Origin: an uncultured virus (IMG/VR IMGVR_UViG_3300024270_000055) | Taxonomy: Duplodnaviria > Heunggongvirae > Uroviricota > Caudoviricetes | DNA length: 64,000 bases | Direction: 5' to 3' (one strand) | IMG/VR virus record: IMGVR_UViG_3300024270_000055 | Part shown: positions 1,004 to 53,707 of the stretch, piece by piece | Layout: each line of letters starts with the position of its first letter | How positions within the stretch are numbered: position 1 is the first letter of the stretch | Made by a program: the position numbers and the translations under genes | The notes under the pieces: model-generated | The model's database searches: none | Seen by the model: only the letters and a program-made list of their open reading frames with translations | What the model was told of the DNA's origin: nothing

Positions 1004-2209
1004 TTATATTGTTATATCCGGCAGAATAAGACCGTGGATAAATTCATTCCTGATTCTGAACCGTTTCTTCAGGCTGATTTTGGAATGATGTGAACAGATA
1101 TAGAAATGGCTGTACCATTTTGCCATCCACTTCTCCAATATTCGGCGACGGATGGCGTAGCTTGAATAATGAATCATGAATCCAAGATAAGAATTTACGC
1201 TACTCCAGAAATGAACGGCTGTTTCTGTTGTAATCGGGAGCTTTTCAAACTCACGCATCTTTGACTCAAAATTATTTATTGTTCTTTTGCCTACATAAAT
1301 TCTTCCCATCTTGCTTACTCCGCCAATAAATTTGCACCCTTTAGTATAGTACTGGATGTAAATCTTGTCATCATGAAGTTCAATATGAAGCGGTTCAAGC
1401 ATCTTTCGCATTTCCGGGATGAATTTCATTATCTTGCGCTTGTCAGTGTCAATAATGAAAAAGTCATCAACATATCTTCCATAGCCTTTGAAGTTGGATT
1501 TGACATATTTGTCAAACTCTGTAAGATAGAAATTGGCAAACATTTGACTAGTCAGATTGCCAATAGGCAGACCACAATTGTCGTCATTGGTAAATAAACT
1601 TTTGTTTTTTGAAAGTCCGTTCCACATGCTATTGTGCATCTTGCGGACGCAATTCAGCTCCGGTCTGTGCATGACGATTTTTTCAGTAAGCCACAGCACA
1701 AGCTCAATATCGTTCCCCTTGTATTTTTCCTTGATGAACTTTTGTAGCATGAGCCATAATGTCGGTTTGTGTATAGACATGAAAAAGCCTTTCAGGTCAA
1801 ATTTGGCAATCCAACATTCTTTTGTATACCCCTCACTTATTTTATGAATCTGACGGTGCATGTCCTGTACACCATACATTGTGCCTTTGTACTTTCGACA
1901 GTTGTAAGTGTTTTCTATAAAGTATTCTTCAAACAAAGGTTCAAGTCTCATACAGAGTAGATGATGCACAACACGGTCACGGAAGGATGCAGCGAATACC
2001 TCCCGTTTTTTAGGACGGGTAGTAACGAATGTAATGCTTGAACCTATTTCATAAGTCCTTGCATTCACTTCTTCGTACAGCTTGTAGACTTCAGTCTCCC
2101 AATTCAGTTCGAACTGGACTGCCGTTGATTTTCTACGCTTATTGCGGCGGCATTCCTTGTATGCCGCTACAAAATCTTCAAATGATATACTACCTTGCGT
2201 GTCGTACAT
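1004..2209 (-). CDS. DGR reverse transcriptase
   Basis: Motifs FRDRVVHH, KFDLKGFF, LPIGNLTSQ (DGR-type SQ) and YGRYVDDF; 401 aa with no maturase or nuclease extension. Confidence 0.97.
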   Translation of the reverse strand: MYDTQGSISFEDFVAAYKECRRNKRRKSTAVQFELNWETEVYKLYEEVNARTYEIGSSITFVTTRPKKREVFAASFRDRVVHHLLCMRLEPLFEEYFIENTYNCRKYKGTMYGVQDMHRQIHKISEGYTKECWIAKFDLKGFFMSIHKPTLWLMLQKFIKEKYKGNDIELVLWLTEKIVMHRPELNCVRKMHNSMWNGLSKNKSLFTNDDNCGLPIGNLTSQMFANFYLTEFDKYVKSNFKGYGRYVDDFFIIDTDKRKIMKFIPEMRKMLEPLHIELHDDKIYIQYYTKGCKFIGGVSKMGRIYVGKRTINNFESKMREFEKLPITTETAVHFWSSVNSYLGFMIHYSSYAIRRRILEKWMAKWYSHFYICSHHSKISLKKRFRIRNEFIHGLILPDITI

Positions 2210-2955: not shown

Positions 2956-4812
2956 CTATAAAGCCGAGAACGCCCGCACCCGACCGGTGTAGATCAGATA
3001 GCTGCCGGTCACGTCGCCGTCACTCCAACCGAGCATCCAACAGTAGCGGCCGCTGCCGTTCACGCCCCAGAACGTAGATGTCCAGTAATACGCTGAGGTG
3101 AGCGCTGTACCACCAGCCTTGGTAAGAGCTGCGTCAACGGCAGTCTTGTTGCTGTATGCAGCCCACATTTGACCAAGTGAAGGCAGGAAGCCCTTCTTTC
3201 CCGACGGGAAGGAGAACGCATTACACCAGCCTGCCGCATAACCAGTTCCGCTTTGCAGTTTCATGATATTGGTGGTGTTTGTTGCACCATCATAATCGGC
3301 CTTGGCTTGCGTTTCATCGGATATTGCGGTCATGTAGTTTTCCAGTGTTCCTGAATAACTGCTGTGGATTTGCATCGTATCGGATGCTTCCGTCAATGCG
3401 ATACCGAATCTGCAATTACTTGTAATGACAGCTACGCAATCGGCTGTATATGTACCATCCCAAGCGTCAGTGGTGTGATAATACCCTTCAGTATCTTTGA
3501 TGTACACGCCATTGGTCGGATTTGTAGTACCGGGGCGATAGGTATACGCCACGCTCACCGTTCTAGCTCCGCCTGCTACAGCCGTATATGGTCCGAATGA
3601 TTCCGTCACTATATATCCGCTCACGCTGGAGGCATACACATAATAAACAGTTCCCTTTGCAATCGAGAATGCCTTGGTTGCCGATGTCGATGTTCCCAGT
3701 ACATTTCCGCTGCTGTCCTTTACTGTTATCGTAAACCCCGAAGTCAAACCGCTGACGTTTACGGTCAGCGTTTCATTGGCAAGCTTGTACTCCATTGTGG
3801 CGGAATAGCTTGCCTGCGAAGCCGTGCGGTTCGTGATGGACGTCGGCGTAGTATAGTTTGTCTTTTCATCAGCCGTAATGCTGTACGTTGTTCCGAATGC
3901 CACCTTCTGAGTACATGTTCCGGTTGCGGTCAATGTATGAGACTTGCCGTTAATGGTAATTTTCTGACCTGCCACGCTTGCTCCATCTTCAGCGGTCACT
4001 GTAACGGTCACAAGCTCAGTTTGGTATGTGCCTGTCTTGGTCTGCGACGTTCCTGATGTTGTGAATGTTTCAGTCGGTGCTTTATAATCCGTAACTGCAC
4101 TCCATGTGATTGTACAGCTGGCTCCTGTCGGGACTTTTGTTGTACCTCCGCTTGAAAGTGTTACTGTATCCATGCCTGACGCTGCAACAGTACAGGTAGC
4201 GCCACTGATGTCAGTATGGGAACTTTGGTTGGTGATTGACTTTACAGTAAGTATGGTTGTACTGTAAGTTCCGGTCTTTGTCATAGAATCCTGAGAACAT
4301 GTGAGACCTGTAACTGCGGCAGGAGTCGCATATCCGTTTACCGCACTCCATGTAATGCCTACGCCGGTTGTTCCATAAGGAATCATGACCGAGCCTCCTG
4401 AAGCCAATGTTGCCGTTTTGCTTGTACCATCCTCGCTGTAAGTTACGGTAGCTTTTGCGTTGGCAATATCAGTGTGGGAACTTTGGTTGGTTGTCATGCT
4501 CACGGACAGGTTACATGTTTTGTATGTTCCCGTTACGTTTCGTGAGTTCCCTGCAACGGCTGTTGAAGTGAAAGAATCTGGAGTCTTGTAACCTTCAACT
4601 TTCGAGTATTCAACTGAATATTCCACGTAGGGAGGGATGTTTACGGAAATTTCCGTGCCTTCCCATGTATATTCAACACTTCCACCCGGATGGGTTACGG
4701 TGATCGTCGCTCCAAGCAAACCGTCATGGCTAGCTTGATTGGATAAGAGAGAGAGGTTCAGGATTTCTCCCTGAAGCCCTCCACCTCCAGTTGCGTTGGT
4801 TATTCCTATCAT
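2956..4812 (-). CDS. DGR target: tail-fibre tip/adhesin with Thr-rich beta-sandwich repeats and a C-terminal CLec-like variable domain
   Basis: About five repeated 80-aa Ig/PEGA-like units; C-terminal GFLPSLGQM...YYWTST...RVRAF CLec-type pattern containing the VR. Confidence 0.9.
   Translation of the reverse strand: MIGITNATGGGGLQGEILNLSLLSNQASHDGLLGATITVTHPGGSVEYTWEGTEISVNIPPYVEYSVEYSKVEGYKTPDSFTSTAVAGNSRNVTGTYKTCNLSVSMTTNQSSHTDIANAKATVTYSEDGTSKTATLASGGSVMIPYGTTGVGITWSAVNGYATPAAVTGLTCSQDSMTKTGTYSTTILTVKSITNQSSHTDISGATCTVAASGMDTVTLSSGGTTKVPTGASCTITWSAVTDYKAPTETFTTSGTSQTKTGTYQTELVTVTVTAEDGASVAGQKITINGKSHTLTATGTCTQKVAFGTTYSITADEKTNYTTPTSITNRTASQASYSATMEYKLANETLTVNVSGLTSGFTITVKDSSGNVLGTSTSATKAFSIAKGTVYYVYASSVSGYIVTESFGPYTAVAGGARTVSVAYTYRPGTTNPTNGVYIKDTEGYYHTTDAWDGTYTADCVAVITSNCRFGIALTEASDTMQIHSSYSGTLENYMTAISDETQAKADYDGATNTTNIMKLQSGTGYAAGWCNAFSFPSGKKGFLPSLGQMWAAYSNKTAVDAALTKAGGTALTSAYYWTSTFWGVNGSGRYCWMLGWSDGDVTGSYLIYTGRVRAFSAL
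2964..3069 (-). repeat. DGR variable repeat (VR)
   Basis: 18 mismatches to TR, all at TR adenines; invariant GC-rich 3' end CGGGTGCGGGCGTTCTCGG. Confidence 0.97.
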
Positions 4813-36051: not shown

Positions 36052-36540
36052 AAATCTGTCGTGTGTAAGTTAAAAGTAAAAAATATAATATATAATAATA
36101 AACAACTAAACCTATATATAAGTGTATGTGTTCTATATCTTCTCTACAAAGATAGAAAAATACTAAATATCAAACAATTACAAAAGGTGAAAAGTTTTAA
36201 AGATTATGCCAAAAAATAGGAGAAAACCGAAGACTTTAATTAAAGTGGTTAAATATGCAATAAATATACAATTTAATGCAAGAATATACAAAATAAGGAA
36301 AAACGAAAAAATCGGGAAGAAAAAATTTTTATGAGGGGTAAATGCGTGATTTTAAATTCAATATAAGGGGGGTAGGGGCACTATCTTGTAAGCGATTGGG
36401 GGTTAATGGGTTATGATTATATTAATGTTATAGTTATAACATAAACAACAAAATAAGGCTTACATCTACCAGAAGAAACAAAACTAAAAACCTGAGATTT
36501 TTCATCCTAAAACAGGTGCAAAGGTTTTGAGGTTGTAACC

Positions 36541-36640
36541 NNNNNNNNNNNNNNNNNNNNNNNNNNNNNNNNNNNNNNNNNNNNNNNNNNNNNNNNNNNN
36601 NNNNNNNNNNNNNNNNNNNNNNNNNNNNNNNNNNNNNNNN
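36541..36640. other. Assembly gap (100 N) flanked by a 127-bp duplicated overlap
   Basis: 36414..36540 is identical to 36641..36767. Confidence 0.95.
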
Positions 36641-36973
36641 TGATTATATTAATGTTATAGTTATAACATAAACAACAAAATAAGGCTTACATCTACCAGA
36701 AGAAACAAAACTAAAAACCTGAGATTTTTCATCCTAAAACAGGTGCAAAGGTTTTGAGGTTGTAACCCTCACCTCTTTATAAATACACTAACAAAACATA
36801 CCCTCAATTACCACTACATCCAGATAGCTGGTACTTGTATTAATTCCTTTATTCCTGATGCTTCGTATCCTGATAAACTACCCGACAACCTAATATCAAA
36901 ACAATATCATTAAAAACATGTTCTACAACACCCAAAAAAATCCGTAATTTATTGAAAATAAAGTAGTTATTTC

Positions 36974-37004
36974 TTTGGTATATCATAAAAAAGTTGTATA
37001 TTTG
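36974..37004 (+). promoter_or_regulatory. Bacteroidota sigma-A promoter for the small-gene region
   Basis: TTTG (36974) and TATATTTG (36997). Confidence 0.65.
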
Positions 37005-37280
37005 TATATCCTAATAAGGGATAAGCGAGTTACAAAATAATGATGAAAAGAAAGGAGTCCCGAAGTACGCCAATACTCCAGAACTCCAAAAGGTTGGGTA
37101 ATTGGAAAGAACTACCCCCCCCCACAACAGGGAACAAAAGTAGTTCTTTCTTCTTTCCTCTCCAAATTCTTTCCTATTTATTTTTTTGATTTATTGAATA
37201 TCTGACGGGCAAAGGATATAGTTTGGTATAGTACCAAACGAAAGCGGAGGGCTTTAACCCTCCACCAAATCCCGTAAATT

Positions 37281-37343
37281 ATGGAAATACGTTTTTCCGT
37301 TAGGTTCTGGAAGATTAAATTCACTTTCATTCTAGCCCTTTGA
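37281..37343 (+). CDS. 20-aa hydrophobic/basic peptide (candidate type I toxin)
   Basis: MEIRFSVRFWKIKFTFILAL, covered by a predicted antisense transcript. Confidence 0.5.
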   Translation: MEIRFSVRFWKIKFTFILAL

Positions 37344-37476
37344 TAGTGAACTTTGCAGAACTGGGGGGAATATAAGGAGTTCCCCCCTTTACGGTTTTCC
37401 TATTTCCTTTGCAAATATAGATATTCTTTGAACAACTCGCCAAATCTGATTGTTTAATTTAAAAAATATTAAGATT

Positions 37477-37794
37477 ATGGCTAAAGTTATCACTACAAAT
37501 TTTGACGAACAAATTACTATTGTTCCTTCTATGTACTTCGTTTGTGCTACTGATAAGTTTTTATCTGGTTGGGGTTGTGCTGAGGGTAGAACCGCAAAGC
37601 GTGTTATTATCTGCAATTCATATCGTGAGGCTCAACGTATGGCGGACGCTTTCAGAAATTACCGCAACAGTGGTATGAATTATATAAATATTTGTTCTAA
37701 ACTCCCTTATTACAACGAAAAGCGATACAAGGTTACTTATTCGACATTTTCGGATTTTAGTGATTGGCTGAAATGGACTTGCATTCCAGAATAA
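37477..37794 (+). CDS. Hypothetical early protein
   Basis: ATDKFLSGWGCAEG motif; A-rich leader. Confidence 0.7.
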   Translation: MAKVITTNFDEQITIVPSMYFVCATDKFLSGWGCAEGRTAKRVIICNSYREAQRMADAFRNYRNSGMNYINICSKLPYYNEKRYKVTYSTFSDFSDWLKWTCIPE

Positions 37795-37942
37795 CCCTAT
37801 TTAATCGGGCTAACCTGTTAGTTTGTTAGCCCTTCTTCTATCCTTTAAATTCCTTTATCATGATTGAAACTATAATACTATTTGCGTGTTTGTGGGCTTC
37901 TTATAAGGTGGTGAATAATTACGAGAGAAAGAAAGCTAGTAA

Positions 37943-38215
37943 ATAACCTATATCTTTAAAGCTGAATACCAAAAAGGCTATAACAACAGGATTTGCAGAG
38001 TTTACAGAATTAAAAGGAACAATCCGATTTATTTAGGTTCTCACTCGTTTTGTACTGCTTCATGTCGTTGTGATAGGTCCGAAGTGTTCAACGCTTTAAT
38101 AGAGTGGGGGTGTATTCCTAAAGGCTTGTATACTGCCTCCGTAACTTCGTGGTGTGGTGCGGGCTACTATTGTCCAAAGGTTGAGGAAAAAGGCTATAAA
38201 ATCATTGAACTATAA
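37943..38215 (+). pseudogene. 90-codon open frame lacking an upstream ATG
   Basis: ITYIFKAEYQKGYNNRICRVYRIKRNNPIYLG...KIIEL*, preceded in frame by TAA. Confidence 0.45.
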
Positions 38216-38430
38216 AAAATATTATAACTACATGAAAAAAGAATATCCGTATGATAAAAGGTGTCGCCTTTCACTGTTTTAAGGCGTTGTATTCCGTTTT
38301 CTTTAGCAAGAGAAAGGATTATACCATATTACAGGAAAAAGCCGAAATAAGCGCAAAAAGAAAGGCTTTTTATCGTTCCTTGTACCTGTCATCGTTAACC
38401 AATACTTTGAATCTTAAATATAATTGAGCT

Positions 38431-38616
38431 ATGAAACAAGAAAAGTACCGTTATTTCTCCGTGCTGTTGATTGATGGCACGGAGGTAGAAGTAAAGACCT
38501 ACAGCGCAATGACGGAAAGATATTGTGAGCTGCTTTCCTACCACCTTGTAAACAAGCAGCACGGGCTGAATTTAAGCCCTTCCGATGTTGTGAGTGTGAA
38601 ATGCATATCTAAGTGA
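38431..38616 (+). CDS. Hypothetical protein
   Basis: ORF with A-rich leader. Confidence 0.55.
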   Translation: MKQEKYRYFSVLLIDGTEVEVKTYSAMTERYCELLSYHLVNKQHGLNLSPSDVVSVKCISK

Positions 38617-38672
38617 TTTAAACGGCTTAAATCGCCTTATATTGAGTAATTGAACTATTAAATAATGATGTT

Positions 38673-38912
38673 ATGAAATCGAAATCCGCAAAAGATATAT
38701 ACAAACAGGGCATGAAATTAATGCAAGAAGCCGCAATCCGTGGTTGGAATGGTAAGGAATACACGGATGAATCTTCAAATAGGATTGATTATATATACGA
38801 AGTATCACAAAGATATGTCGCTAATATTGTCAAATATCTAACTGGTACGGATTGGCTTCCGAATGATAAATACGATGCCAAGGTAGAACGCTGCATTTAT
38901 GCAAAATTCTAA
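38673..38912 (+). CDS. Hypothetical protein
   Basis: ORF with A-rich leader. Confidence 0.6.
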   Translation: MKSKSAKDIYKQGMKLMQEAAIRGWNGKEYTDESSNRIDYIYEVSQRYVANIVKYLTGTDWLPNDKYDAKVERCIYAKF

Positions 38913-38993
38913 CAACTACAGGGGCTGCAAACCGCATTGTACCACGGTTGTAACGTGGCAGCCCACTAATATTAACCTATTAAATTAAATTGT

Positions 38994-39191
38994 ATGAAAC
39001 TTATTAAACTTGAAACTAAGAAAGGATTTCACTATGTAAATCCAAATTACATTGTATCAATAGAGGACAAAACGGATTTTTCCCGAATATGCACGAGAAT
39101 CGTCTTTGTACATGGTGATTATATTGATTTTGACATGAATATAGATAAAGTATTGAAAATTATAAGCAAAAGCCAAAGTACTATTCTTTAA
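38994..39191 (+). CDS. Small FlbD-like hypothetical protein
   Basis: IKL...YVNPNYIVSIE pattern. Confidence 0.5.
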   Translation: MKLIKLETKKGFHYVNPNYIVSIEDKTDFSRICTRIVFVHGDYIDFDMNIDKVLKIISKSQSTIL

Positions 39192-39262
39192 ATGCCGAAT
39201 AACATCAATTGAGATTTTTATATAACATGTATATTTTCTAACTTTACAAAAAAAATAAGATT

Positions 39263-39457
39263 ATGCCTAAAGGAAGACCGAAAGGTAGCAAAAATAAAGT
39301 AATCAAGGAGCGTGATATGAGAAATCGTACTATATTCCGTATAGATATGGATATAGATTCGTGGCTTCGTAGTAAAAAGAACATGGGAGCGTATATTAAC
39401 GGGCTTATCCGCAAGGATATGGAGGAACAAATGAAAATTAAAGAACAGGAGGACTGA
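39263..39457 (+). CDS. Ribbon-helix-helix DNA-binding protein with AT-hook
   Basis: KGRPKG, then FRID...WL...YINGLIRKDM. Confidence 0.65.
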   Translation: MPKGRPKGSKNKVIKERDMRNRTIFRIDMDIDSWLRSKKNMGAYINGLIRKDMEEQMKIKEQED

Positions 39458-39802
39458 TTATGGGTTTAGCGATTGGAGTTATCATACTATTATTGTTCAT
39501 TTCGTGGTGCAACACAAATGATTGTTGGGCTTTCGGACTTACTATGTTCTTCGTCTGCTTTGTGCTGATGTTCATCGGTGTATGGCAGCAACAGAGCGAG
39601 GAAAAGAAAAAGAAACGTGGATTTTAAGGGAAGGAGGCATTATGTTGTTCTTTTTGTTTGTCACGATATGTATATGTATCATATATCCTATATTGATACC
39701 TTGTTTCTTTATGCCGTTTGTCCTGTTCTGTATTATTGAGTACATCAAGGACAGACGGAGGCTGAACCGTTGCAAGAAAATGGGTGGAAGGAGGGCTAGA
39801 CG

Positions 39803-40651
39803 ATGAATGTACAGACTTTCAGAAATGCCTTTCTTGAAAAATATCCAGAAAGGGGTGCAGTGTTGGCTTATTATGAGAAGGCGACCAACAGGAAGCCGAC
39901 TTGGGCTGACTTTTCCGCTTATTCGCTGAACAAGTTCCGGAAGTACATGTTGGAAGAATCGGGATTGTGTCAAAAATCGGTAAGAAGGTATCTTACATGG
40001 TTTTCCATTGTCATGGGTATGTTTGAGGAAGAAGTTAAACTTCCGAAGAATTGGCGCAAGTTCCTGTATGTGTCTGATGACATATCACAGAACGTGTATT
40101 TGACGGAAGATGAAATCAACCTTATTATAGATTATGTACCCCAGAGCGACAACGAGCAGTTTGTTAAAACTTCATTTCTTCTTGGGGCTTTGACAGGTGC
40201 GAGACACAGCGATTACATGCGTTTTACGGAAAGGAACATACATGATGGATGGTTGAACTATGTATCACAGAAAACCCGCAAGGAGGCGAATATACCTACC
40301 TCTCCTTTGATTTTAAAGCTGATTAAACAGAAATCAAAGGTTGCAAGGGAATTGAGCGAGCCGACTATTAACGACATTATCAGAAGAATCTGCAAAAGTG
40401 TAGGAATCACGGATGAAGTGCAGTTATACCAGAAGGGGAAATATCAAGTCAAGCCAAAATATGAGTTCATAACGAGCCATTCAGCCCGACGAAGTTTTGC
40501 GACGGGACTGTATCTCCGTGGTGCTGACCTGTACCAGATTATGAAACTCATGGGACATAGCAGTACGACACAGACTGAAGGATATATCTGTTGTGGGTTG
40601 CGTACTTTATCGCCCGAGGTAATGGGATATTTTGAGAACTTTAAGCAATAA
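39803..40651 (+). CDS. Tyrosine recombinase without arm-binding domain
   Basis: TGARHSD, QKT, HSARRSFAT, MGHSS, catalytic Y. Confidence 0.92.
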   Translation: MNVQTFRNAFLEKYPERGAVLAYYEKATNRKPTWADFSAYSLNKFRKYMLEESGLCQKSVRRYLTWFSIVMGMFEEEVKLPKNWRKFLYVSDDISQNVYLTEDEINLIIDYVPQSDNEQFVKTSFLLGALTGARHSDYMRFTERNIHDGWLNYVSQKTRKEANIPTSPLILKLIKQKSKVARELSEPTINDIIRRICKSVGITDEVQLYQKGKYQVKPKYEFITSHSARRSFATGLYLRGADLYQIMKLMGHSSTTQTEGYICCGLRTLSPEVMGYFENFKQ

Positions 40652-40683
40652 GGTAGCCGAATAAGATACATAAATTAATAGCT

Positions 40684-40923
40684 ATGGATAGATTTTACTT
40701 TGATTCAGACGAAGATGGCGTACGAAGAGGTTATAAAACGCTTGGTATATGTATCGCTCAATGCAAAAACCATCTCCGTAGAGCTTACGAATATAGTTGT
40801 GGGAATAGCGTCACCGCTGATGTTTATCAATTTATTCAAGGAACGGATAAACTTGGAAAATCAAAATTGTTGGGAACAATCCGATTTGATGGTGATGAGT
40901 TTACAGAAGAGGCAGCCGAATAA
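40684..40923 (+). CDS. Hypothetical protein flanked by 15-bp direct repeats
   Basis: 79-aa ORF; AGG(T/C)AGCCGAATAAG at 40651 and 40910. Confidence 0.6.
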   Translation: MDRFYFDSDEDGVRRGYKTLGICIAQCKNHLRRAYEYSCGNSVTADVYQFIQGTDKLGKSKLLGTIRFDGDEFTEEAAE

Positions 40924-40932
40924 GCTGCCTTT
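40910..40932. terminator. Terminator between convergent genes
   Basis: AGGCAGC-CGAATAA-GCTGCCT-TT. Confidence 0.65.
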
Positions 40933-40934
40933 CC

Positions 40935-42077
40935 TTATATCTTGTCCCAAACCGATTGTACCTTTTCGTATGCCTGTTCCACCTCGTCATTAAGCAGTTT
41001 TGCGTAAATCTGCGTGGTCTTTATGTTCGCATGACCGAGCATCTTTGAAACGGTTTCCATTCGGATGCCGTTGTTGAGAGCCAAGCAAGCTGCGGTGTGC
41101 CGTGCGTAGTGTGTGGTAATCGGCTTCTTTATATTGGCAAATTGAGCTATGACCTTCAAATAATCGTTCATTCTCTGATTTGCGAACACGGGAAGTTTAT
41201 ATTCATACTTTTCCAATATCCCGATAGCCTGTCTGTTAAGCACGATGAAATATTCCTCATCCGTCTTTTGTCGGGTGTCTTGGAACACAAGCTTACCGTC
41301 TTTTTCAAAAACATCACGTTTGAAGTCGAATTTCTGTGCGTCCGCATAGGCAAGTGATGTATAGCACATGAACAGGAACACATCACGAACCTTGTCCAAT
41401 GTAGGATTGAGTTCCACCTCCTTCAATGCACGGAGTTCAAGTTCGGTCAGGTATTTGCGACCTTTCGCCTTTCCACGGTCATAATGTACTCCCACAAACG
41501 GATTTTTCTCGATGAGACCGAATTTCAAAGCCTCCGCAACATAGACCTTGAATCTTTTCATGTAGGCATATATTGTGGTCTGCGTGATTCCCTTCTGTCT
41601 TAACCAGTCCTCGTATTTGTTGATATTGACGATTGTAACATCATTGAAGGTCTGGATAAGTGCGAAATCAACGAGCGAGCCATGGAATACCCAATGTTGC
41701 TTCTGAGTGGATTCCCGATTCCCTCTCTTTTCGATTCTGTCGGCTACAAAATCTATGAATGAACCGATTTTATTGTCGGATGCCTCGAAAAGAGCCTTGA
41801 ACTTGTCGAAGAAGAAATCCCCCGAAGTCTTGTACAGCTCGTTTATGCACTCACGAACCTTGTTGAGTGTAATGTTGATTTGCTCATTAAGCTGGAGTGC
41901 GTCCTTTCTGTTCTTCACAAGTGTTTTGTCAGACCATTGGTCGGAGTATACTTTTACACCAGTAGAAATGAACCTTCTTGAATGTCTGTGGTAAATTTCC
42001 ACCTGAACCAACCCTGTTTTGGTTTTTGTTGCTCTCTTGTGCCTGTCAAAGACAATTTTTACGATTGGATATGCCAT
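40935..42077 (-). CDS. int: Phage integrase (Bacteroidota type, arm-binding N-domain)
   Basis: RRFISTGVKV arm domain, SAM-like core, YTSLAYAD, RQKT, HYARHT, MLGHANIKTTQIYAK; next to attP. Confidence 0.93.
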   Translation of the reverse strand: MAYPIVKIVFDRHKRATKTKTGLVQVEIYHRHSRRFISTGVKVYSDQWSDKTLVKNRKDALQLNEQINITLNKVRECINELYKTSGDFFFDKFKALFEASDNKIGSFIDFVADRIEKRGNRESTQKQHWVFHGSLVDFALIQTFNDVTIVNINKYEDWLRQKGITQTTIYAYMKRFKVYVAEALKFGLIEKNPFVGVHYDRGKAKGRKYLTELELRALKEVELNPTLDKVRDVFLFMCYTSLAYADAQKFDFKRDVFEKDGKLVFQDTRQKTDEEYFIVLNRQAIGILEKYEYKLPVFANQRMNDYLKVIAQFANIKKPITTHYARHTAACLALNNGIRMETVSKMLGHANIKTTQIYAKLLNDEVEQAYEKVQSVWDKI

Positions 42078-42252
42078 AATTTGTGGTTTTTGACCGATTT
42101 TCATTGTTGGAATCATCCGTTTTTTCACTCATTGATGTGCCTACAATGTGCTGTAACGCCATTTTTGGACGGAAGAACACACGTTCTGACCTCATCATGA
42201 CCGCATTTATTTGTATGTACTTTTACCTGATTCCCGATTTCTTGAAAAAAAT

Positions 42253-47347: not shown

Positions 47348-47408
47348 TTTTCGTTTTTCATGATTTAAAGTTAACTGACAGACCTCACCACGGGTTGGTG
47401 GGGTACAT

Positions 47409-47474
47409 TCCTTGGTATCTCAATTGGTAGAGCCGTGTTGCACGTGGTTACAGGTTCGAGTCCTGTCCAAGGAG
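47409..47474 (+). tRNA. tRNA-like element with truncated anticodon arm
   Basis: Acceptor TCCTTGG/CCAAGGA, D arm, T arm ACAGG-TTCGAGT-CCTGT; only 16 nt between D and T stems. Confidence 0.75.
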
Positions 47475-47661
47475 CTAGTGATAGTTAATTGAATTGTTTA
47501 ATATTTAAAGAAAAAAAGATAAACAAATAGGAATAAGACTAATATTGTCGAGTTACATATTTGAACACTTCTTTCTTTTAAGACTTGGGCATTCACTTAA
47601 CTGCGCTAAATTGGCAAATAACACTTTAGGTTCTACCTGTCTGTGAAGATGGGTAGAATAT

Positions 47662-47735
47662 GGCTGATTAACTCAACTGCATAGAGTATCTCAATCCTAA
47701 TGAGAAAGTTGAGGGTTGGAGTCCCTCATCAGCCA
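47662..47735 (+). tRNA. tRNA-Arg(CCT), atypical T loop
   Basis: GGCTGAT/ATCAGCC, ACTC/GAGT, TCTCA-ATCCTAA-TGAGA, GAGGG-TTGGAGT-CCCTC. Confidence 0.85.
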
Positions 47736-47953
47736 CTAGGAAGCCCTAGTTTCATTTAATTATTCTAACAACCAAAAGCCCTTCCGAAAGGTATCTAGTA
47801 GGTCGTCCCGTGAAAGGTTCGGGTTATGTCAATATCAGCTTACTATAAATTTAATCACATGGGGCTTCCAACACATTTTACTTTGGAATCATAGTATTTA
47901 TTTTTGTGTTTAACGGCATCTGTCTGTGAAGATAGATGCCTTTCTTCTTGATT

Positions 47954-49609: not shown

Positions 49610-50413
49610 ATGTCGAATCAAACAACAGCAGTTACCCTCAAATCAATGTTGGGTAACGAAAACGTCAAGGCTAGATTCCATGAAATCCTTGGCAAGAAAG
49701 CACCGGGATTCATCAGTTCAATCCTTTCAGTGGCAAACAGCAATGCATTATTGCAGAAGGCAGACCCTAAGACCGTGATGAACGCAGCGGTAATAGCCGC
49801 AACCCTCGATTTGCCTATCAACCCAAGTTTAGGCTTTGCTTACATAGTCCCTTTCGGTGGTCAGGCTCAGTTCCAATTGGGATGGAAAGGGATTACCCAG
49901 CTGTGCATGAGGTCGGGTCAGTACGCAAAGATTGAAGTAAACGAAGTGTATGAAGGTGAGGTAAAAATCAAGAACCGATTCACGGGTGAATATGAGTTCG
50001 GGGAAGCAACTTCTGATAAGATTGTCGGATTTCTCGCTTTCTTCAAACTGAATAACGGATTTGAAAAGTACCTCTATATGACCAAGGAAGAATGCGAAGC
50101 TCACGGCAAGAAATACTCGCAAACATTCAAGAGAGGGGGAGGTCTTTGGGCTTCGGACTTCAATTCAATGGCAAAAAAGACGGTATTGAAGCAGCTTCTT
50201 TCAAAATTCGGTATCATGTCAATCGAAATGCAACGAGCGCAAATTTTCGACCAAGCCGTTGTCAAGAATGACTTGATTGAAGAAAATGTGGACGAAGCTG
50301 AAGTTGAATACGTTGACAATCCTTCCAATGCTGATGCCCGTAGACAAGCTATGAAGGAAGCTATGGAAGAAGCGGAAGTTGTAGACACTGAAACTGGAGA
50401 GTTGTTCAAATGA
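49610..50413 (+). CDS. recT: RecT-family single-strand annealing protein
   Basis: LDLPINPSLGFAYIVPF, AQFQLGWKG, MAKKTVLK. Confidence 0.92.
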   Translation: MSNQTTAVTLKSMLGNENVKARFHEILGKKAPGFISSILSVANSNALLQKADPKTVMNAAVIAATLDLPINPSLGFAYIVPFGGQAQFQLGWKGITQLCMRSGQYAKIEVNEVYEGEVKIKNRFTGEYEFGEATSDKIVGFLAFFKLNNGFEKYLYMTKEECEAHGKKYSQTFKRGGGLWASDFNSMAKKTVLKQLLSKFGIMSIEMQRAQIFDQAVVKNDLIEENVDEAEVEYVDNPSNADARRQAMKEAMEEAEVVDTETGELFK

Positions 50414-51054
50414 TAGAGGAAGTTTGGGTAGACATAGAAGGGTTTGAGGGATTGTATCAAGTTAGTTCTATGGGGAGAGTGAAATCATTCGATAGAGTAA
50501 CAAGAAATATAATCAGACCTTTTATAAAAAAAGGAAGAATACTTAAGCCAAATCCAGATGGACATGGATATGTTTACGTTACTCTTTTTAAAGATGGCAT
50601 ACGTAGTAGAGTGAAGGTTCATAGATTGGTAGCCAATGCTTTTATTCCTAACCCAGAGAATAAACCCGAAATAGACCATATAAACTCTATTCGTGACGAT
50701 AATAGATTAGAAAATTTAAGATGGGTCACAAGGTCTGAAAATAATAAAAATCCAATTTGGATTGAGAGACAAAGGGCTGCGGCTGTTGGTCGTGTCATTC
50801 TTCCTGAAACTCGTATAAAAATATCTCAAAAATGCAAGGGGCATAGGGTGAACATGGAAGCTATTCAGAAGATGGCTGAATCCAGAATGAGGGCTGTTGA
50901 AGCGTATGATGCCAATTGGATTTTAATTAAATCTTTCAAGAATCTTTCTGAAGCATGCGAGTTTGCAAATGTTTCAAAAATGGCGATAGTTAATGCTTGT
51001 AAAGGGAAAACAAAAACAAGCGGTGGGTATAAATGGAAATATAAACAATTATAA
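50410..51054 (+). CDS. NUMOD4-HNH homing endonuclease with C-terminal NUMOD1-like domain
   Basis: EVWVDIEGFEGLYQVSSMGRVKS; VHRLVA...IDHIN..RDDNRLENLRW; GGYKWKY. Confidence 0.92.
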   Translation: MIEEVWVDIEGFEGLYQVSSMGRVKSFDRVTRNIIRPFIKKGRILKPNPDGHGYVYVTLFKDGIRSRVKVHRLVANAFIPNPENKPEIDHINSIRDDNRLENLRWVTRSENNKNPIWIERQRAAAVGRVILPETRIKISQKCKGHRVNMEAIQKMAESRMRAVEAYDANWILIKSFKNLSEACEFANVSKMAIVNACKGKTKTSGGYKWKYKQL

Positions 51055-51776: not shown

Positions 51777-52058
51777 ATGAACAAGATTAAGATTTTTAAC
51801 GAACAGGAAAGAGTGAAGATTGAATTCGACTTTGAAAACGTCGAGGTGGCTAGACAATACTTCAACGACGATGAATGCATCAAAGACATTGCGGAAGCAT
51901 TGAAGGATGAAGATGACAACGAAGGTAAAGAAGAAGCGACTAGCCCCGAAATAGAAAACATTAAGAATAGCCTTCGTGACCTCATGAGAACTGCGCCGAT
52001 GTCTGTCTTGACCAGCTTGCAGGGCATGATTGACGAAGAACTTGGTAAACGTGAATGA
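51777..52058 (+). CDS. Acidic hypothetical protein
   Basis: 93-aa ORF. Confidence 0.55.
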   Translation: MNKIKIFNEQERVKIEFDFENVEVARQYFNDDECIKDIAEALKDEDDNEGKEEATSPEIENIKNSLRDLMRTAPMSVLTSLQGMIDEELGKRE

Positions 52059-52059
52059 T

Positions 52060-52461
52060 ATGTTCTACGAGGTAAAGGTCAAAGTGGAGCGTGAAAACTC
52101 CAAGGGAGAACTCAAGAAAGTAACCGAACACTACATCGTTGACGGTTGTGAGCTGTTCGCTGAAATTGAAGCAAAAGCCTTCGAAGAGTTCGGAAACGAT
52201 TGTGACGTGTTCTTCATTGCACGGAGCAAGATTGTTGAAATTGTCAATTGGAAGGAAATCGGGAAGCCGTTCTTCAAGGCTACGGTGGTAGATACCTTCA
52301 CGGACGATGACGGGAACGAAAAGGAAACCAAGTATCAGATGCTTGTATGCGCCAAGGACATTGCCGAGGCAAACAAGATTATGTCTGAGCATTTAAAACA
52401 AGGATTTGATATGCACTTGGACGGTATCACCAAAACAAAGATTTTAGACGTGCTTACTTAA
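52060..52461 (+). CDS. DUF4494-like protein
   Basis: FYEVKVK...KKVTEHYIV...FFKATV...TKILDV. Confidence 0.7.
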   Translation: MFYEVKVKVERENSKGELKKVTEHYIVDGCELFAEIEAKAFEEFGNDCDVFFIARSKIVEIVNWKEIGKPFFKATVVDTFTDDDGNEKETKYQMLVCAKDIAEANKIMSEHLKQGFDMHLDGITKTKILDVLT

Positions 52462-52607
52462 TCATAGATTGTTGTGGCTTGTGTGTAAAGTCGAGTGGGG
52501 CATGTTCCTCAATGGTTCACCACGGTAGATACTGATACAGGGCTTTGGATGTTTTTTCAGGAGATTTTTTCCATCCATCCCCCGTATTCCTTGACGGGGG
52601 ACAACTC

Positions 52608-52757
52608 CACGGGATAGTTCATATTGATAGAATATCGGTAGTTATAGGCGCAAGCAATGTGTGTTTTTGTCATGTTTGATATTGTTTATTGTTAGTAACC
52701 CTCATATATTTCATGCCTGCAAAACCGAAGAAAGAGGGTCGTTACCTCTTCCCGTGA
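52608..52757 (+). tRNA. tRNA(GCA)-like cloverleaf interrupted by a 77-nt insert
   Basis: CACGGGA/TCCCGTG, GTTC/GAAT, TCGGT-[52640-52716]-CTGCAAA-ACCGA, AGAGG-GTCGTTA-CCTCT. Confidence 0.75.
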
Positions 52758-52859
52758 CGACATTGTTTTTAAGTTTTATTGTGTTTAACCGAAAGCCCTT
52801 TGGCTGTAGCCATCGTGGAGTGCAAGGTTCTCCTGTTATTGATATAGCAATGTATAGCA

Positions 52860-52928
52860 ACCCCGTTAGTTTACATAGAAGAACGCCATTGCACTTTGGA
52901 GAAGGCGGAGCATTACCGCCACGGGGAA
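52860..52928 (+). tRNA. tRNA-like element with shortened anticodon arm
   Basis: CCCCGT/ACGGGG, GTTT/GAAC, CCA-TTGCACTT-TGG, GGCGG-AGCATTA-CCGCC. Confidence 0.65.
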
Positions 52929-53145
52929 CAACACAGACTGTCATTGTTTGTATTTTAAGTGGTTAATGTGGGCGGAAGTCATTCGGTTGGCTTCCGTTCT
53001 CTAAATTAAAGGCGTATGGTACTGAAGATAAACAAAGGCGACTATGAAAGGTTGATTGGTGCGTTGGAGGTCGCAAGGGAATCGGAGACCAACGCAAACA
53101 AGAAACGATTATACAATCTAACACGAAAGAAACTGAATAGACAAA

Positions 53146-53583
53146 ATGAAATACTTCTCAAAAAAAGTAAGAAACCAGTACGGAGAGTTTGATTCCGAAA
53201 CTGAATTCAACAGGTATCTATACCTGAAACACCTTGAAGATGTCGGGGAAATCAGAGACTTGCAAAGACAGGTGAGGTTCGAGATTATCCCTAAGCTGGT
53301 CAAGAATGTGGAAGTACAATTGAAGACAAAGGTCAAGATTGTGCAGAAAGTGGAAGAAAAGGCTGCCCACTACACCTGTGATTTCACTTACATCGAGAAA
53401 GGCGGTAAGTACATCATAGAAGAACAAAAGAGCCAAGGCACTGTGTTAGCACGTGACTATCCACTGCGCAAGAAGCTGATTAAGCAGATTATCCATAAAC
53501 ATAATGAGGAGGTGGGATTCGAAGATTGGCTGTTCAGAGAAATACTTCCACCTCCACCGAAAAGAAAGAGAAAATCAAAATAA
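53146..53583 (+). CDS. DUF1064-like nuclease-fold protein
   Basis: FDSETE..RY..LK...GEIRDLQRQVRF...YTCDFTY...EEQK. Confidence 0.75.
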   Translation: MKYFSKKVRNQYGEFDSETEFNRYLYLKHLEDVGEIRDLQRQVRFEIIPKLVKNVEVQLKTKVKIVQKVEEKAAHYTCDFTYIEKGGKYIIEEQKSQGTVLARDYPLRKKLIKQIIHKHNEEVGFEDWLFREILPPPPKRKRKSK

Positions 53584-53707
53584 GATAAGTATGTGTTTAA
53601 CGAAAGATAAGTATCTTCCACCGTGAGGATGCTTATCTTATTCAAGAAAGATTAGTATGTGATTGCAAAAAACAAAGAATAATATTTGGCATTTCAAAAA
53701 GAAGCCG

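Follow-up and report, generated by a model that had tools for sequence, protein, structure and literature searches.

The window analysed here, a stretch of 64,000 nucleotides (nt) from an uncultured member of Caudoviricetes (IMG/VR record IMGVR_UViG_3300024270_000055), belongs to a temperate tailed phage encoding a major head protein, a terminase, a portal, a tape-measure protein and a primase; the phage is a temperate siphovirus infecting Bacteroides-type gut bacteria. Its plus-strand recombination module comprises, in order, the genes for RecT, an HNH endonuclease and an exonuclease, a small open reading frame (ORF), a DUF4494 gene, a gap of 554 nt (52462-53015), another small ORF and the gene of a DUF1064 resolvase. 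In this gap sits the element under study, a tRNA-like cloverleaf (52608-52757) that carries an insert of 77 nt in its anticodon loop. The upstream neighbour, here as in all related loci, is the DUF4494 gene (PF14902, phrog_19572; 52030-52461, plus strand; Pfam score 71 bits). The next ORF after the gap starts at 53016, and the DUF1064-type Holliday-junction resolvase gene lies downstream at 53146-53583 (plus strand). The comparisons described below lead us to conclude that the element is a real gene under selection.

With introns allowed, ARAGORN reports a tRNA-Cys(gca), i(33,77), at 52608-52758 and places the insert at 52640-52716, which are exactly the coordinates proposed in an earlier annotation made from the letters alone (the sequence-only reading); the joined exons amount to 73 nt, to which the ARAGORN call adds one trailing base. 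This is the only intron-type call in the whole window, and none was obtained in 30 first-order Markov shuffles of it. With default settings ARAGORN finds only a tRNA-Arg(CCT) at 47662-47736, as does Rfam at gathering scores (57 bits), and the Rfam tRNA model (RF00005, threshold 29 bits) has no match in 52300-53100 even at E-values up to 10. Transfer-messenger RNA (tmRNA) was not found by ARAGORN in the window, nor did Rfam return tmRNA or YrlA at E-values up to 10. A scanner of our own for acceptor, T-arm and D-arm combinations gave 24 matches versus 5-19 in 10 shuffles; since this does not discriminate, its output is not used as evidence.

The 5' exon-like half of the element (52608-52639; plus strand, as are all its parts) comprises the 5' strand of the acceptor (52608-52614), the D arm (52617-52633) and the 5' strand of the anticodon stem (52635-52639). 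The insert (52640-52716) follows between tRNA positions 31 and 32, and the 3' half (52717-52757) supplies the loop CTGCAAA (52717-52723), the 3' strand of the anticodon stem (52724-52728), the variable loop AGAA (52729-52732), the T arm with the loop GTCGTTA (52733-52749), the 3' strand of the acceptor (52750-52756) and the discriminator A (52757). All 21 scaffold pairs are formed: the acceptor CACGGGA/TCCCGTG has seven Watson-Crick pairs (pair 3:70 is C-G), the D stem GTTC/GAAT includes one G-U pair, the anticodon stem TCGGT/ACCGA encloses the loop CTGCAAA and the T stem is AGAGG/CCTCT, which gives a four-stem cloverleaf with a 7/5 acceptor/T stack of 12 base pairs (bp). The loops do not conform to the canonical pattern: the 7-nt anticodon loop is split, the D loop (ATATTGATA) has no GG and thus no G18G19, and the T loop has neither T54 nor A58 and thus no T54-Psi55-C56...A58. 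The A discriminator, the D loop without GG, the T loop and the GCA arm listed in the sequence-only reading could all be read back from the sequence. Because of A73, the interrupted loop, the odd D and T loops and the missing Rfam tRNA match, the element is not a decoder as it stands, and the earlier judgement that it is unlikely to act as an ordinary decoder holds.

The minimum free energy (MFE) fold and the centroid fold coincide in a cloverleaf with an extended anticodon arm, both for the 150 nt alone and for 221 nt with flanks, and the fold energy of the 150 nt is modest (z -1.97; 6 of 200 shuffles were equally stable). The extension is a helix in which UAGGCG (insert bases 6-11) pairs with the last three insert bases and with C32, U33 and G34. 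The ends of the insert had been proposed to pair with each other; the helix is present, but it is not one of insert with insert only, since its partners include C32, U33 and G34 and it therefore takes in part of the anticodon loop. A terminator-like 8-bp hairpin (52738-52761, plus strand), composed of the T loop and the trailer and followed by AUUGUUUUUA, competes with the T arm and the acceptor and is beaten by the cloverleaf in the 221-nt fold.

The exons point to a particular ancestor. Searches were made in 201 genomes of the family of a Bacteroides metagenome-assembled genome (MAG) that carries one of the related loci, and the uninterrupted 18-mer composed of position 26 and the arm TCGGT-CTGCAAA-ACCGA was found in 4 of them, each time in a chromosomal tRNA-Cys(GCA) with the discriminator T and the T arm GGCGG-TTCGAGT-CCGCC. 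The exon anticodon arm is identical to that of the host tRNA-Cys at 17/17 positions, including the canonical C32, U33 and A37, and a looser pattern (the same loop, stems ACCG(T/C/A) or ACCA(G/T), and the same T stem) occurs in 43 of 101 genomes. Thus, the window exons carry the tRNA-Cys anticodon arm typical of this family, and because the host arm is uninterrupted, the insertion point is fixed unambiguously at 31|32. Judged by this resemblance, the element descends from a cysteine tRNA. Its identity to the host tRNA-Cys is confined to the 18-nt arm and stops short of the 3' end. According to the excerpted text of PMC9976931, bacterial cysteine identity needs U73 plus GCA; the element has the GCA, and its position 73 is A in the window copy and C or A in the relative L088.

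L088, a contig of 1797 nt with a DUF4494 protein 71% identical to that of the window, is the only one of the fetched loci (see below) that shares the gap sequence of the window. Its arm TCGGT, followed by an insert of 86 nt and by CTGCAAA-ACCGA-AGAA, is identical to the window's, and the interruption falls at the same place. The two copies agree at 22/22 positions over position 26, anticodon arm and variable loop taken together, compared with a mean identity of 78% over the gap, and at 0/14 in the acceptor. Compensatory changes, of the kind that the sequence-only reading had named as a test, are seen in this pair of copies: out of the 21 scaffold pairs, 11 are the same in both copies, 1 is changed on one side, 8 are changed on both sides and still paired, and 1 is broken (A1.A72 in L088). 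The D loop (AACGGTA) and the T loop (TTCGATT) of L088 are canonical and its acceptor is wholly unlike that of the window, while a search of the L088 element against Rfam at E-values up to 1 gave no match, tRNA included. The predicted fold of L088 has the same topology and the same 5-by-4-nt internal loop, with one compensatory pair (C-G to A-U) in the proximal helix; the distal insert of L088 has no stable fold, and the distal fold of the window is not kept. In the MFE folds of both copies the 5' junction of the insert lies at the end of the anticodon stem, by the 5-nt loop, and the 3' junction falls within a helix, so that the predicted junctions lack the two 3-nt bulges around a 4-bp helix (bulge-helix-bulge).

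Within the insert, conservation is uneven. The L088 insert opens with the same nine bases as that of the window (AGTTATAGG), the two share 57 positions (77 versus 86 nt), and a 10-nt U-rich core (TTTTTGTCAT) is also common to both; this 9-nt base and the core are the conserved parts, and the distal insert is hypervariable. Contigs of three sequencing runs (X1, X2 and X3), all from closer relatives and not from this strain, were compared with the window over 52000-53600, the differences of the X2 and X3 contigs being listed up to position 52713. Neither X2 nor X3 has a substitution or indel in 52608-52649, whereas in 52655-52713 they together show at least 21 substitution rows, and several indels occur from 52650 onward. 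This pattern points to constraint on the 5' exon half and on the base of the insert, and to hypervariability of the distal insert. The segment at about 52670-52713, which the sequence-only reading had called a U-rich 'anti-start' segment, turned out to be the fastest-changing part in three relatives; its distal fold is lost in L088 and its best complementarity within the window is only 11-12 nt (E >0.6, chance level), and the proposed role is not supported. Likewise, gap DNA of the window type has a sole match in 401 family genomes, an AT-rich stretch of 25 nt upstream of an unrelated gene, which is at chance level.

The variation of the insert could have been driven by a diversity-generating retroelement (DGR), and the phage does possess a DGR-type reverse transcriptase (1004-2209, minus strand; phrog_1423, E 3e-83) adjoining tail-fibre-like genes, but the insert changes are not adenine-specific and this source was rejected. 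The insert is taken as non-coding, since its reading frames are not conserved and have no PHROG match. Searches against Rfam at E-values up to 10 identified in it no group I or group II intron, ribozyme, tmRNA or Y RNA, and no T-arm-like hairpin was seen.

As to expression, an 865-nt contig of X2, a metatranscriptome library, runs from the DUF4494 gene into the unspliced element as far as 52748; this is a weak hint that the two are co-transcribed, as DNA may be present in the library. X2 was the only RNA library that covered the element, and assembled contigs cannot reveal RNA ends. Among the differences listed for the run contigs there is no joint skipping the insert. X1 does not cover the element and proves nothing about it; RNA-library contigs of X1 and X2 cover 52969-53011.

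The DUF4494 gene leads to a much wider set of loci. At least 227 homologues of DUF4494 were identified, and 80 viral, 1 genome and 80 metagenome loci were fetched via their alignment; the fetched loci are human-gut, one contig belongs to the uncultured Bacteroides MAG and several reside on contigs of 100-280 kb. ARAGORN with the -i option makes a plus-strand tRNA or tRNA-like call downstream of DUF4494 in 140 of the 152 loci whose downstream sequence extends for at least 400 nt, at a distance of 103-153 nt in 137 loci and of ~1.1 kb in 3. Five of the 12 loci without a call contain a 165-nt class recognised by pattern; the others are L085 (a 192-nt form), L160 (a variant of the 232-nt class), L124 (a T stem with a point mutation), L005 (a weaker call), L054 and L139 (3' half only) and L164 (a deletion fusing the D loop to the downstream gene). 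The homologue search proposed in the sequence-only reading, for the same scaffold with different inserts, has thus been successful both in L088 and in this family. The common classes share the acceptor TCGGCAG/CTGCCGA, the T arm GCGGG-TTCGAGT-CCCGC, A73 and nearly identical flanks, and have mutually unrelated interiors, which range from 36 to ~180 nt in classes with one shared acceptor/T arm. A form of 82-86 nt, which reaches 43 bits with the Rfam tRNA model, has an MFE cloverleaf with a 20-nt 'anticodon' loop; other forms measure 95, 118, 165, 229 and 232 nt, and anticodon-region inserts of ~77-146 nt occur in other members. The Rfam tRNA model scores 43 bits for L016 and L071. L004 and L086 have a common interior and different, fully paired acceptors, and in the Rfam tRNA match of L086 (34.3 bits) the acceptor, D and T arms are aligned and the anticodon arm is skipped. 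Several members exhibit a leucine-type D arm and the T arm of the host tRNA-Leu. According to the excerpted text of PMC9976931, which cites Larkin 2002, E. coli tRNA-Leu without the anticodon and variable arms remains a substrate for charging, provided that A73 and the D/T contacts are preserved; leucine-type RNAs that do not decode and can nevertheless be charged are thus conceivable.

Main-class elements stop 14-22 nt short of the following start codon, and their 3' half was found in none of the 201 genomes. L032 has two copies of the last 87 nt of its 229-nt element (3148-3234 and 4283-4369; 97.7% identical, 1.05 kb apart), which flank a cytosine-methyltransferase gene. In L054 and L139 the lone 3' half precedes an N-methyltransferase gene, and the deletion in L164 runs from the D loop into a RuvC-like gene. 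The repeats around the methyltransferase gene of L032 suggest a further role for the conserved 3' half, as a joint at which gene cassettes recombine. A region 100-1100 nt upstream of the DUF4494 gene is where many viral contigs have one of their ends, so that the end of the genome, the start of packaging or a break that recurs in assemblies may lie near there.

The remainder of the gap is rich in structure as well. A conserved leader block (52489-52535, plus strand; AAGTCGAGTGGGG ... TCACCACGGTAGATACTG) is common to L088, and CTCACCACGG and GTGGGGTAC of this block recur at 47384-47406. An 8-bp hairpin (52578-52601, plus strand; z -3.43), formed by CCCCCGUA and the ACGGGGG region, ends 6 nt before the 5' end of the element; hairpins unlike it in sequence occupy the same place in L088 (z -2.39), L004 (-3.23) and L085 (-3.15), and one lies before the tRNA-Arg at 47662 (z -7.06). 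In all, five lineages have a hairpin immediately ahead of the 5' end. A strong hairpin with the apical sequence GUCU-GUGA-AGAU (a GNRA-type loop) is found directly 5' of tRNA-Arg(CCT) and of the elements of three other lineages (window 47630-47659 and 47916-47940; L004 4537-4563; L005 ~4537; L085 3028-3059), the second window copy not being followed by a tRNA. Downstream of the element, the hairpin GGAG-UGCAAGGUU-CUCC (52817-52833, plus strand) recurs with CCCG/CGGG stems and a near-identical loop in L088 and at 47806-47822 of the window, and a hairpin CGGAAG...CUUCCG (52973-52996, plus strand) precedes the next ORF, with the compensatory CGGAGG/CCUCCG in L088. A second compact tRNA-like cloverleaf is predicted between them (52861-52926, plus strand; z -3.25, 0 of 200 shuffles as stable) and is almost identical in L088; it consists of a 6-bp acceptor, a D arm, a 3-bp 'anticodon' stem with the loop UUGCACUU and a T arm GGCGG-AGCAUUA-CCGCC, the stem of which is the T stem of host tRNA-Cys.

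Part of the gap module recurs at 47.4-47.9 kb around the tRNA-Arg. The repeated post-tRNA portion (window 47756-47837 versus L088 1548-1617, BLAST E 4e-12, and versus window 52787-52835) consists of AAAGCCCTT... and a hairpin with the loop UG(A/C)AAGGUU, whose stems compensate each other (GGAG/CUCC versus CCCG/CGGG). The tRNA-Arg(CCT) itself (47662-47736, plus strand) has a D loop (AACTGCATA) without GG and the T loop TTGGAGT, in which the 19:56 pair may be swapped, and its CCA is not encoded. A 66-nt mini tRNA-like cloverleaf at 47409-47474 (plus strand; z -2.25), unseen by ARAGORN and Rfam, has the acceptor TCCTTGG/CCAAGGA, a D loop with GG, the canonical T loop TTCGAGT and, as 'anticodon arm', only CCGUG-UUGCA-CGUGG. 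Counting 47409-47474, 52608-52757 and 52861-52926, the phage keeps at least three cloverleaves of tRNA-Cys flavour, none with a normal anticodon arm.

The gap contains no promoter motif of the Bacteroides type (TAnnTTTG); scans for sigma-70 promoters and for terminators gave 4 sites versus 1.9 expected and 3 versus 0.9 expected, respectively. GenBank phages searched with the phage DNA gave no match, and a search for close relatives returned only a contig that is identical across the gap and hence carries no information. The AlphaFold model of DUF4494 (predicted local distance difference test score, pLDDT, 87.2) shows a tandem beta-beta-alpha-beta-beta repeat; the best Foldseek matches are ribosomal eL20-type chains (E 1.5e-3, template modelling (TM) score 0.24), the best VIA-align score is Z 4.7, and a comparison with PDB sequences gave no match. 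No conclusion is drawn about DUF4494 as an RNA partner. An HNH/homing-type endonuclease gene (50410-51054, plus strand) is wedged between the RecT and exonuclease genes, and the ~3.5 kb between the primase and integrase genes (36052-39571) contain no ORF of 120 aa or more, with AT-rich repeats at ~36.4-36.9 kb.

What, then, could be the function of the interrupted cloverleaf? We tentatively put first the interpretation that it is a non-decoding, tRNA-shaped RNA module, which is cut out by tRNA-processing enzymes and stays unspliced. It would be transcribed together with the rightward genes of the recombination module, and its 12-bp acceptor/T-arm stack, in itself a structural prerequisite only, would be recognised by the host RNase P at 52608 and by RNase Z after 52757. 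Such cleavage would cut the operon transcript, leave the DUF4494 message upstream with a hairpin protecting its end, and release a tRNA look-alike of ~150 nt, which would remain unspliced and read no codons. The conserved junction (the anticodon stem, the 5-by-4-nt internal loop and a 4-6-bp helix over C32-G34) is a putative factor-binding surface, while the far end of the insert would be a free-running spacer. An unspliced non-decoder is favoured because cysteine identity is missing, the elbow of the window copy is degenerate and the acceptor has been wholly replaced; because the family keeps the top half of the molecule and alters the anticodon domain; and because the element takes a position in the operon behind a hairpin and has no known splicing signal. 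Of the natural tRNA-scaffolded regulatory RNA envisaged in the sequence-only reading, the natural, conserved, tRNA-shaped element is supported and the regulatory cargo is not.

Several observations weigh against this interpretation. What bears on transcription and splicing comes from the contigs of a single RNA library, and contigs do not show RNA ends. The anticodon arm is the best-conserved part and is identical to that of the host, and a processing signal would need neither the arm nor the junction; a host-identical arm better fits a spliced decoder or a mimic of tRNA-Cys. The L088 copy could be a working tRNA, as its D and T loops are canonical. The main-class element may be dispensable, or some of its copies defective, because L054 and L139 are without the 5' half and L164 is without most of it. 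Finally, odd loops alone do not prove loss of function, given that the accepted tRNA-Arg(CCT) also lacks GG.

Or perhaps the insert is a genuine short tRNA intron of a new kind, which is removed by a small ribozyme, or by a host or phage endonuclease plus a ligase, so that the exons are joined into a working tRNA with a GCA anticodon? We consider this, which corresponds to the 'unusual short intron' of the sequence-only reading, rather unlikely, even though the exons without the insert form five perfect stem pairs and a canonical loop of 7 nt, both identical to those of host tRNA-Cys, and the insertion point and the first nine insert bases are kept in L088, whose tRNA loops are canonical. The insert also pairs with C32-G34, one of the pairs being compensatory, as introns pair with anticodon-loop bases in spliced pre-tRNAs; the conserved junction could serve as a splice signal, and the 'enigmatic introns' of the Lak megaphages provide a precedent. 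At the same time, no group I intron, group II intron or self-cleaving ribozyme was matched in Rfam in the searches described above (E up to 10 for the window, up to 1 for L088), and at 77-86 nt the insert, which has a terminal C instead of G, is far below the size of group I introns. As drawn in the MFE folds, the junctions, the 3' one in a helix and the 5' one at the end of a stem, do not resemble a bulge-helix-bulge. Position 73 (A in the window, C or A in L088) is not U73, and an acceptor with 0/14 identical positions would be odd for orthologous working tRNAs. Furthermore, no RNA ligase or splicing endonuclease is present among the PHROG matches of the 56 ORFs, the sole RNA-library contig over the element is unspliced, and a search of IMG/VR for an intron-less phage copy (two motifs separated by a gap of 0-30 nt) gave one match, in an unrelated coding region.

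In its most specific form this explanation postulates a new class of short introns at 31/32 in Bacteroides-type phages, which would not be of group I, would be recognised by the junction motif (the anticodon stem, the AGUUA/CAAA internal loop and the helix between the intron and C32-G34) and would be removed by an undescribed bacterial or phage pathway; we regard it as unlikely. If it were true, splicing would yield a tRNA that has a GCA anticodon and, with A73, no cysteine identity, and that could insert another amino acid at Cys codons or could escape a defence nuclease directed at tRNA-Cys until spliced.

That the insertion simply killed a phage tRNA-Cys gene and left a functionless, decaying remnant is improbable. 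The window D loop has indeed lost GG and the T loop T54 and A58, Rfam does not recognise the element, the distal insert drifts fast and the homologous element of the main class has suffered partial deletions. The insertion is, however, older than the split between the window and L088, since which 8 of the 21 pairs have been changed on both sides and remained paired, and all 21 are intact in the window copy. A decaying gene is equally at variance with the unchanged 5' exon half in X2 and X3, as opposed to at least 21 listed changes in the insert, and with the 22/22 identity of the anticodon arm and its neighbours, position 26 and the variable loop, against the gap mean of 78%. Selection on a real element thus makes it unlikely that we are dealing with a simple pseudogene.

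It is very doubtful that the cloverleaf is a scaffold stabilising a functional cargo, i.e. an antisense 'anti-start' sequence or a decoy, in the insert. The layout resembles that of engineered tRNA scaffolds, the scaffold is conserved and the insert variable both within the window type and across the classes, and fast change could reflect an arms race. The model fails because the supposed cargo is hypervariable: no part is less conserved than the proposed active segment, be it in sequence or in fold, the conserved parts of the insert are its base and the U-rich core and not the 'anti-start' stretch, there is no complementary target longer than 12 nt in the window (E >0.6), and the only match among the 401 family genomes is the chance-level, AT-rich one of 25 nt.

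The least probable idea by far, that there is no RNA gene here at all and that the locus is a DNA site (attP or an origin), codes for a small protein on one strand or the other, or forms its cloverleaf by chance, can draw on the arm identical to host tRNA-Cys (partial copies of host tRNAs are frequent in phage att sites) and on minus-strand ORFs of ~35-38 codons that start at a conserved ATG (the complement of GTCAT) in both the window and L088, yet it is contradicted by compensatory changes of the RNA-helix kind, by the distance of ~10 kb to the two integrase genes (39803-42128), by the confinement of host identity to an 18-nt arm that does not reach the 3' end as att cores do, by indels of 3 and 2 nt in the alignment that make the minus-strand frames non-homologous, by the absence from L088 of the ATG of the plus-strand mini-ORF, by the lack of PHROG matches for the ORFs 52661-52966 (plus strand) and 52711-52944 (minus strand), and by the 0 ARAGORN calls in 30 shuffles.

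Whichever of the first two explanations applies, the consequences would reach beyond this phage. If the insert is spliced out, a new RNA-processing pathway would exist in bacteria, which to our knowledge are the textbook case of the absence of protein-spliced tRNA introns. If it is not, gut phages would maintain a family of non-decoding tRNA mimics, with possible roles in operon processing, as decoys for tRNA-targeting defences or in amino-acid donation. The natural relatives of the element include a form of only 84 nt, which has a 20-nt loop, and, at the other extreme, forms whose inserts measure 146 nt. Those relatives with leucine-type bodies and A73 could, if unspliced, still be charged, as far as the minimal-tRNA work excerpted in PMC9976931 goes.

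Comparison with known systems reveals partial similarities to several of them. Engineered tRNA scaffolds also carry a foreign RNA in the anticodon arm of a tRNA body; they rely on intact D/T-loop contacts and on processing to CCA ends, whereas in the window copy the D and T loops are degenerate and the insert has no conserved cargo. Processing or mimic RNAs of the tRNA-like type are exemplified by mascRNA, which is cut by RNase P and RNase Z, by YrlA-type Y RNAs (RF02553) and by tmRNA. Like these, the element keeps the acceptor/T-arm top half, replaces the anticodon domain, lies within a longer transcript unit and is probably non-decoding; unlike them, it retains a complete, host-identical anticodon arm around the insert. 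It differs from YrlA and tmRNA also by the lack of a Rfam match, from tmRNA by the lack of G3-U70 and of a tag reading frame, and from YrlA by its topology, as the ends of YrlA lie in the stem that binds the Ro protein.

Group I introns of bacterial and phage tRNA genes (RF00028) are similarly located in the anticodon-loop region and follow a 5' exon that ends in U. They are ~200 nt long or more and have a terminal G, while the insert described here has 77-86 nt, ends in C, shows nothing of the P1-P9 architecture and has no Rfam match, to Intron_gpI or otherwise, at E-values up to 10. The protein-spliced bulge-helix-bulge introns of Archaea and Eukaryota are likewise short and pair with anticodon-loop bases, and in Archaea tRNA introns occur at non-canonical positions such as 31/32; the difference is that the predicted MFE fold of the element does not have two 3-nt bulges around a 4-bp helix. 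We know of no tRNA splicing endonuclease from bacteria, and none was seen among the phage ORFs in the PHROG scan.

The nearest precedent, as far as the excerpted text of Devoto et al. 2019 (PMC6784885) describes it, is the 'enigmatic introns' of 23-141 nt in tRNA genes of the Lak megaphages of Prevotella, whose authors state there that no earlier report of introns in phage tRNAs existed; a full-text literature search turned up no report on short phage tRNA introns later than that work. In both cases phages of Bacteroidota hosts carry anticodon-region inserts of tens to ~140 nt, which belong to no known intron class and are kept among related phages. According to the same excerpt, tRNAscan places the Lak inserts at ~36-41 (the 37/38 region), not between 31 and 32 as here, and at least one of them contains a hairpin resembling a T arm and one is described as possibly encoding a tRNA, neither of which applies to the present insert. 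Moreover, in comparison with the Lak tRNAs described there, the present element is without cysteine identity (A73) and its window copy without canonical D/T loops, and it resides in a temperate phage of ~64 kb or more and not in a megaphage of 540 kb. The megaphage tRNA inserts of 2019 were left unexplained, and the same puzzle is now met in a lineage that is ordinary-sized, temperate and common in human-gut metagenomes, and is therefore expected to be far easier to study at the bench.

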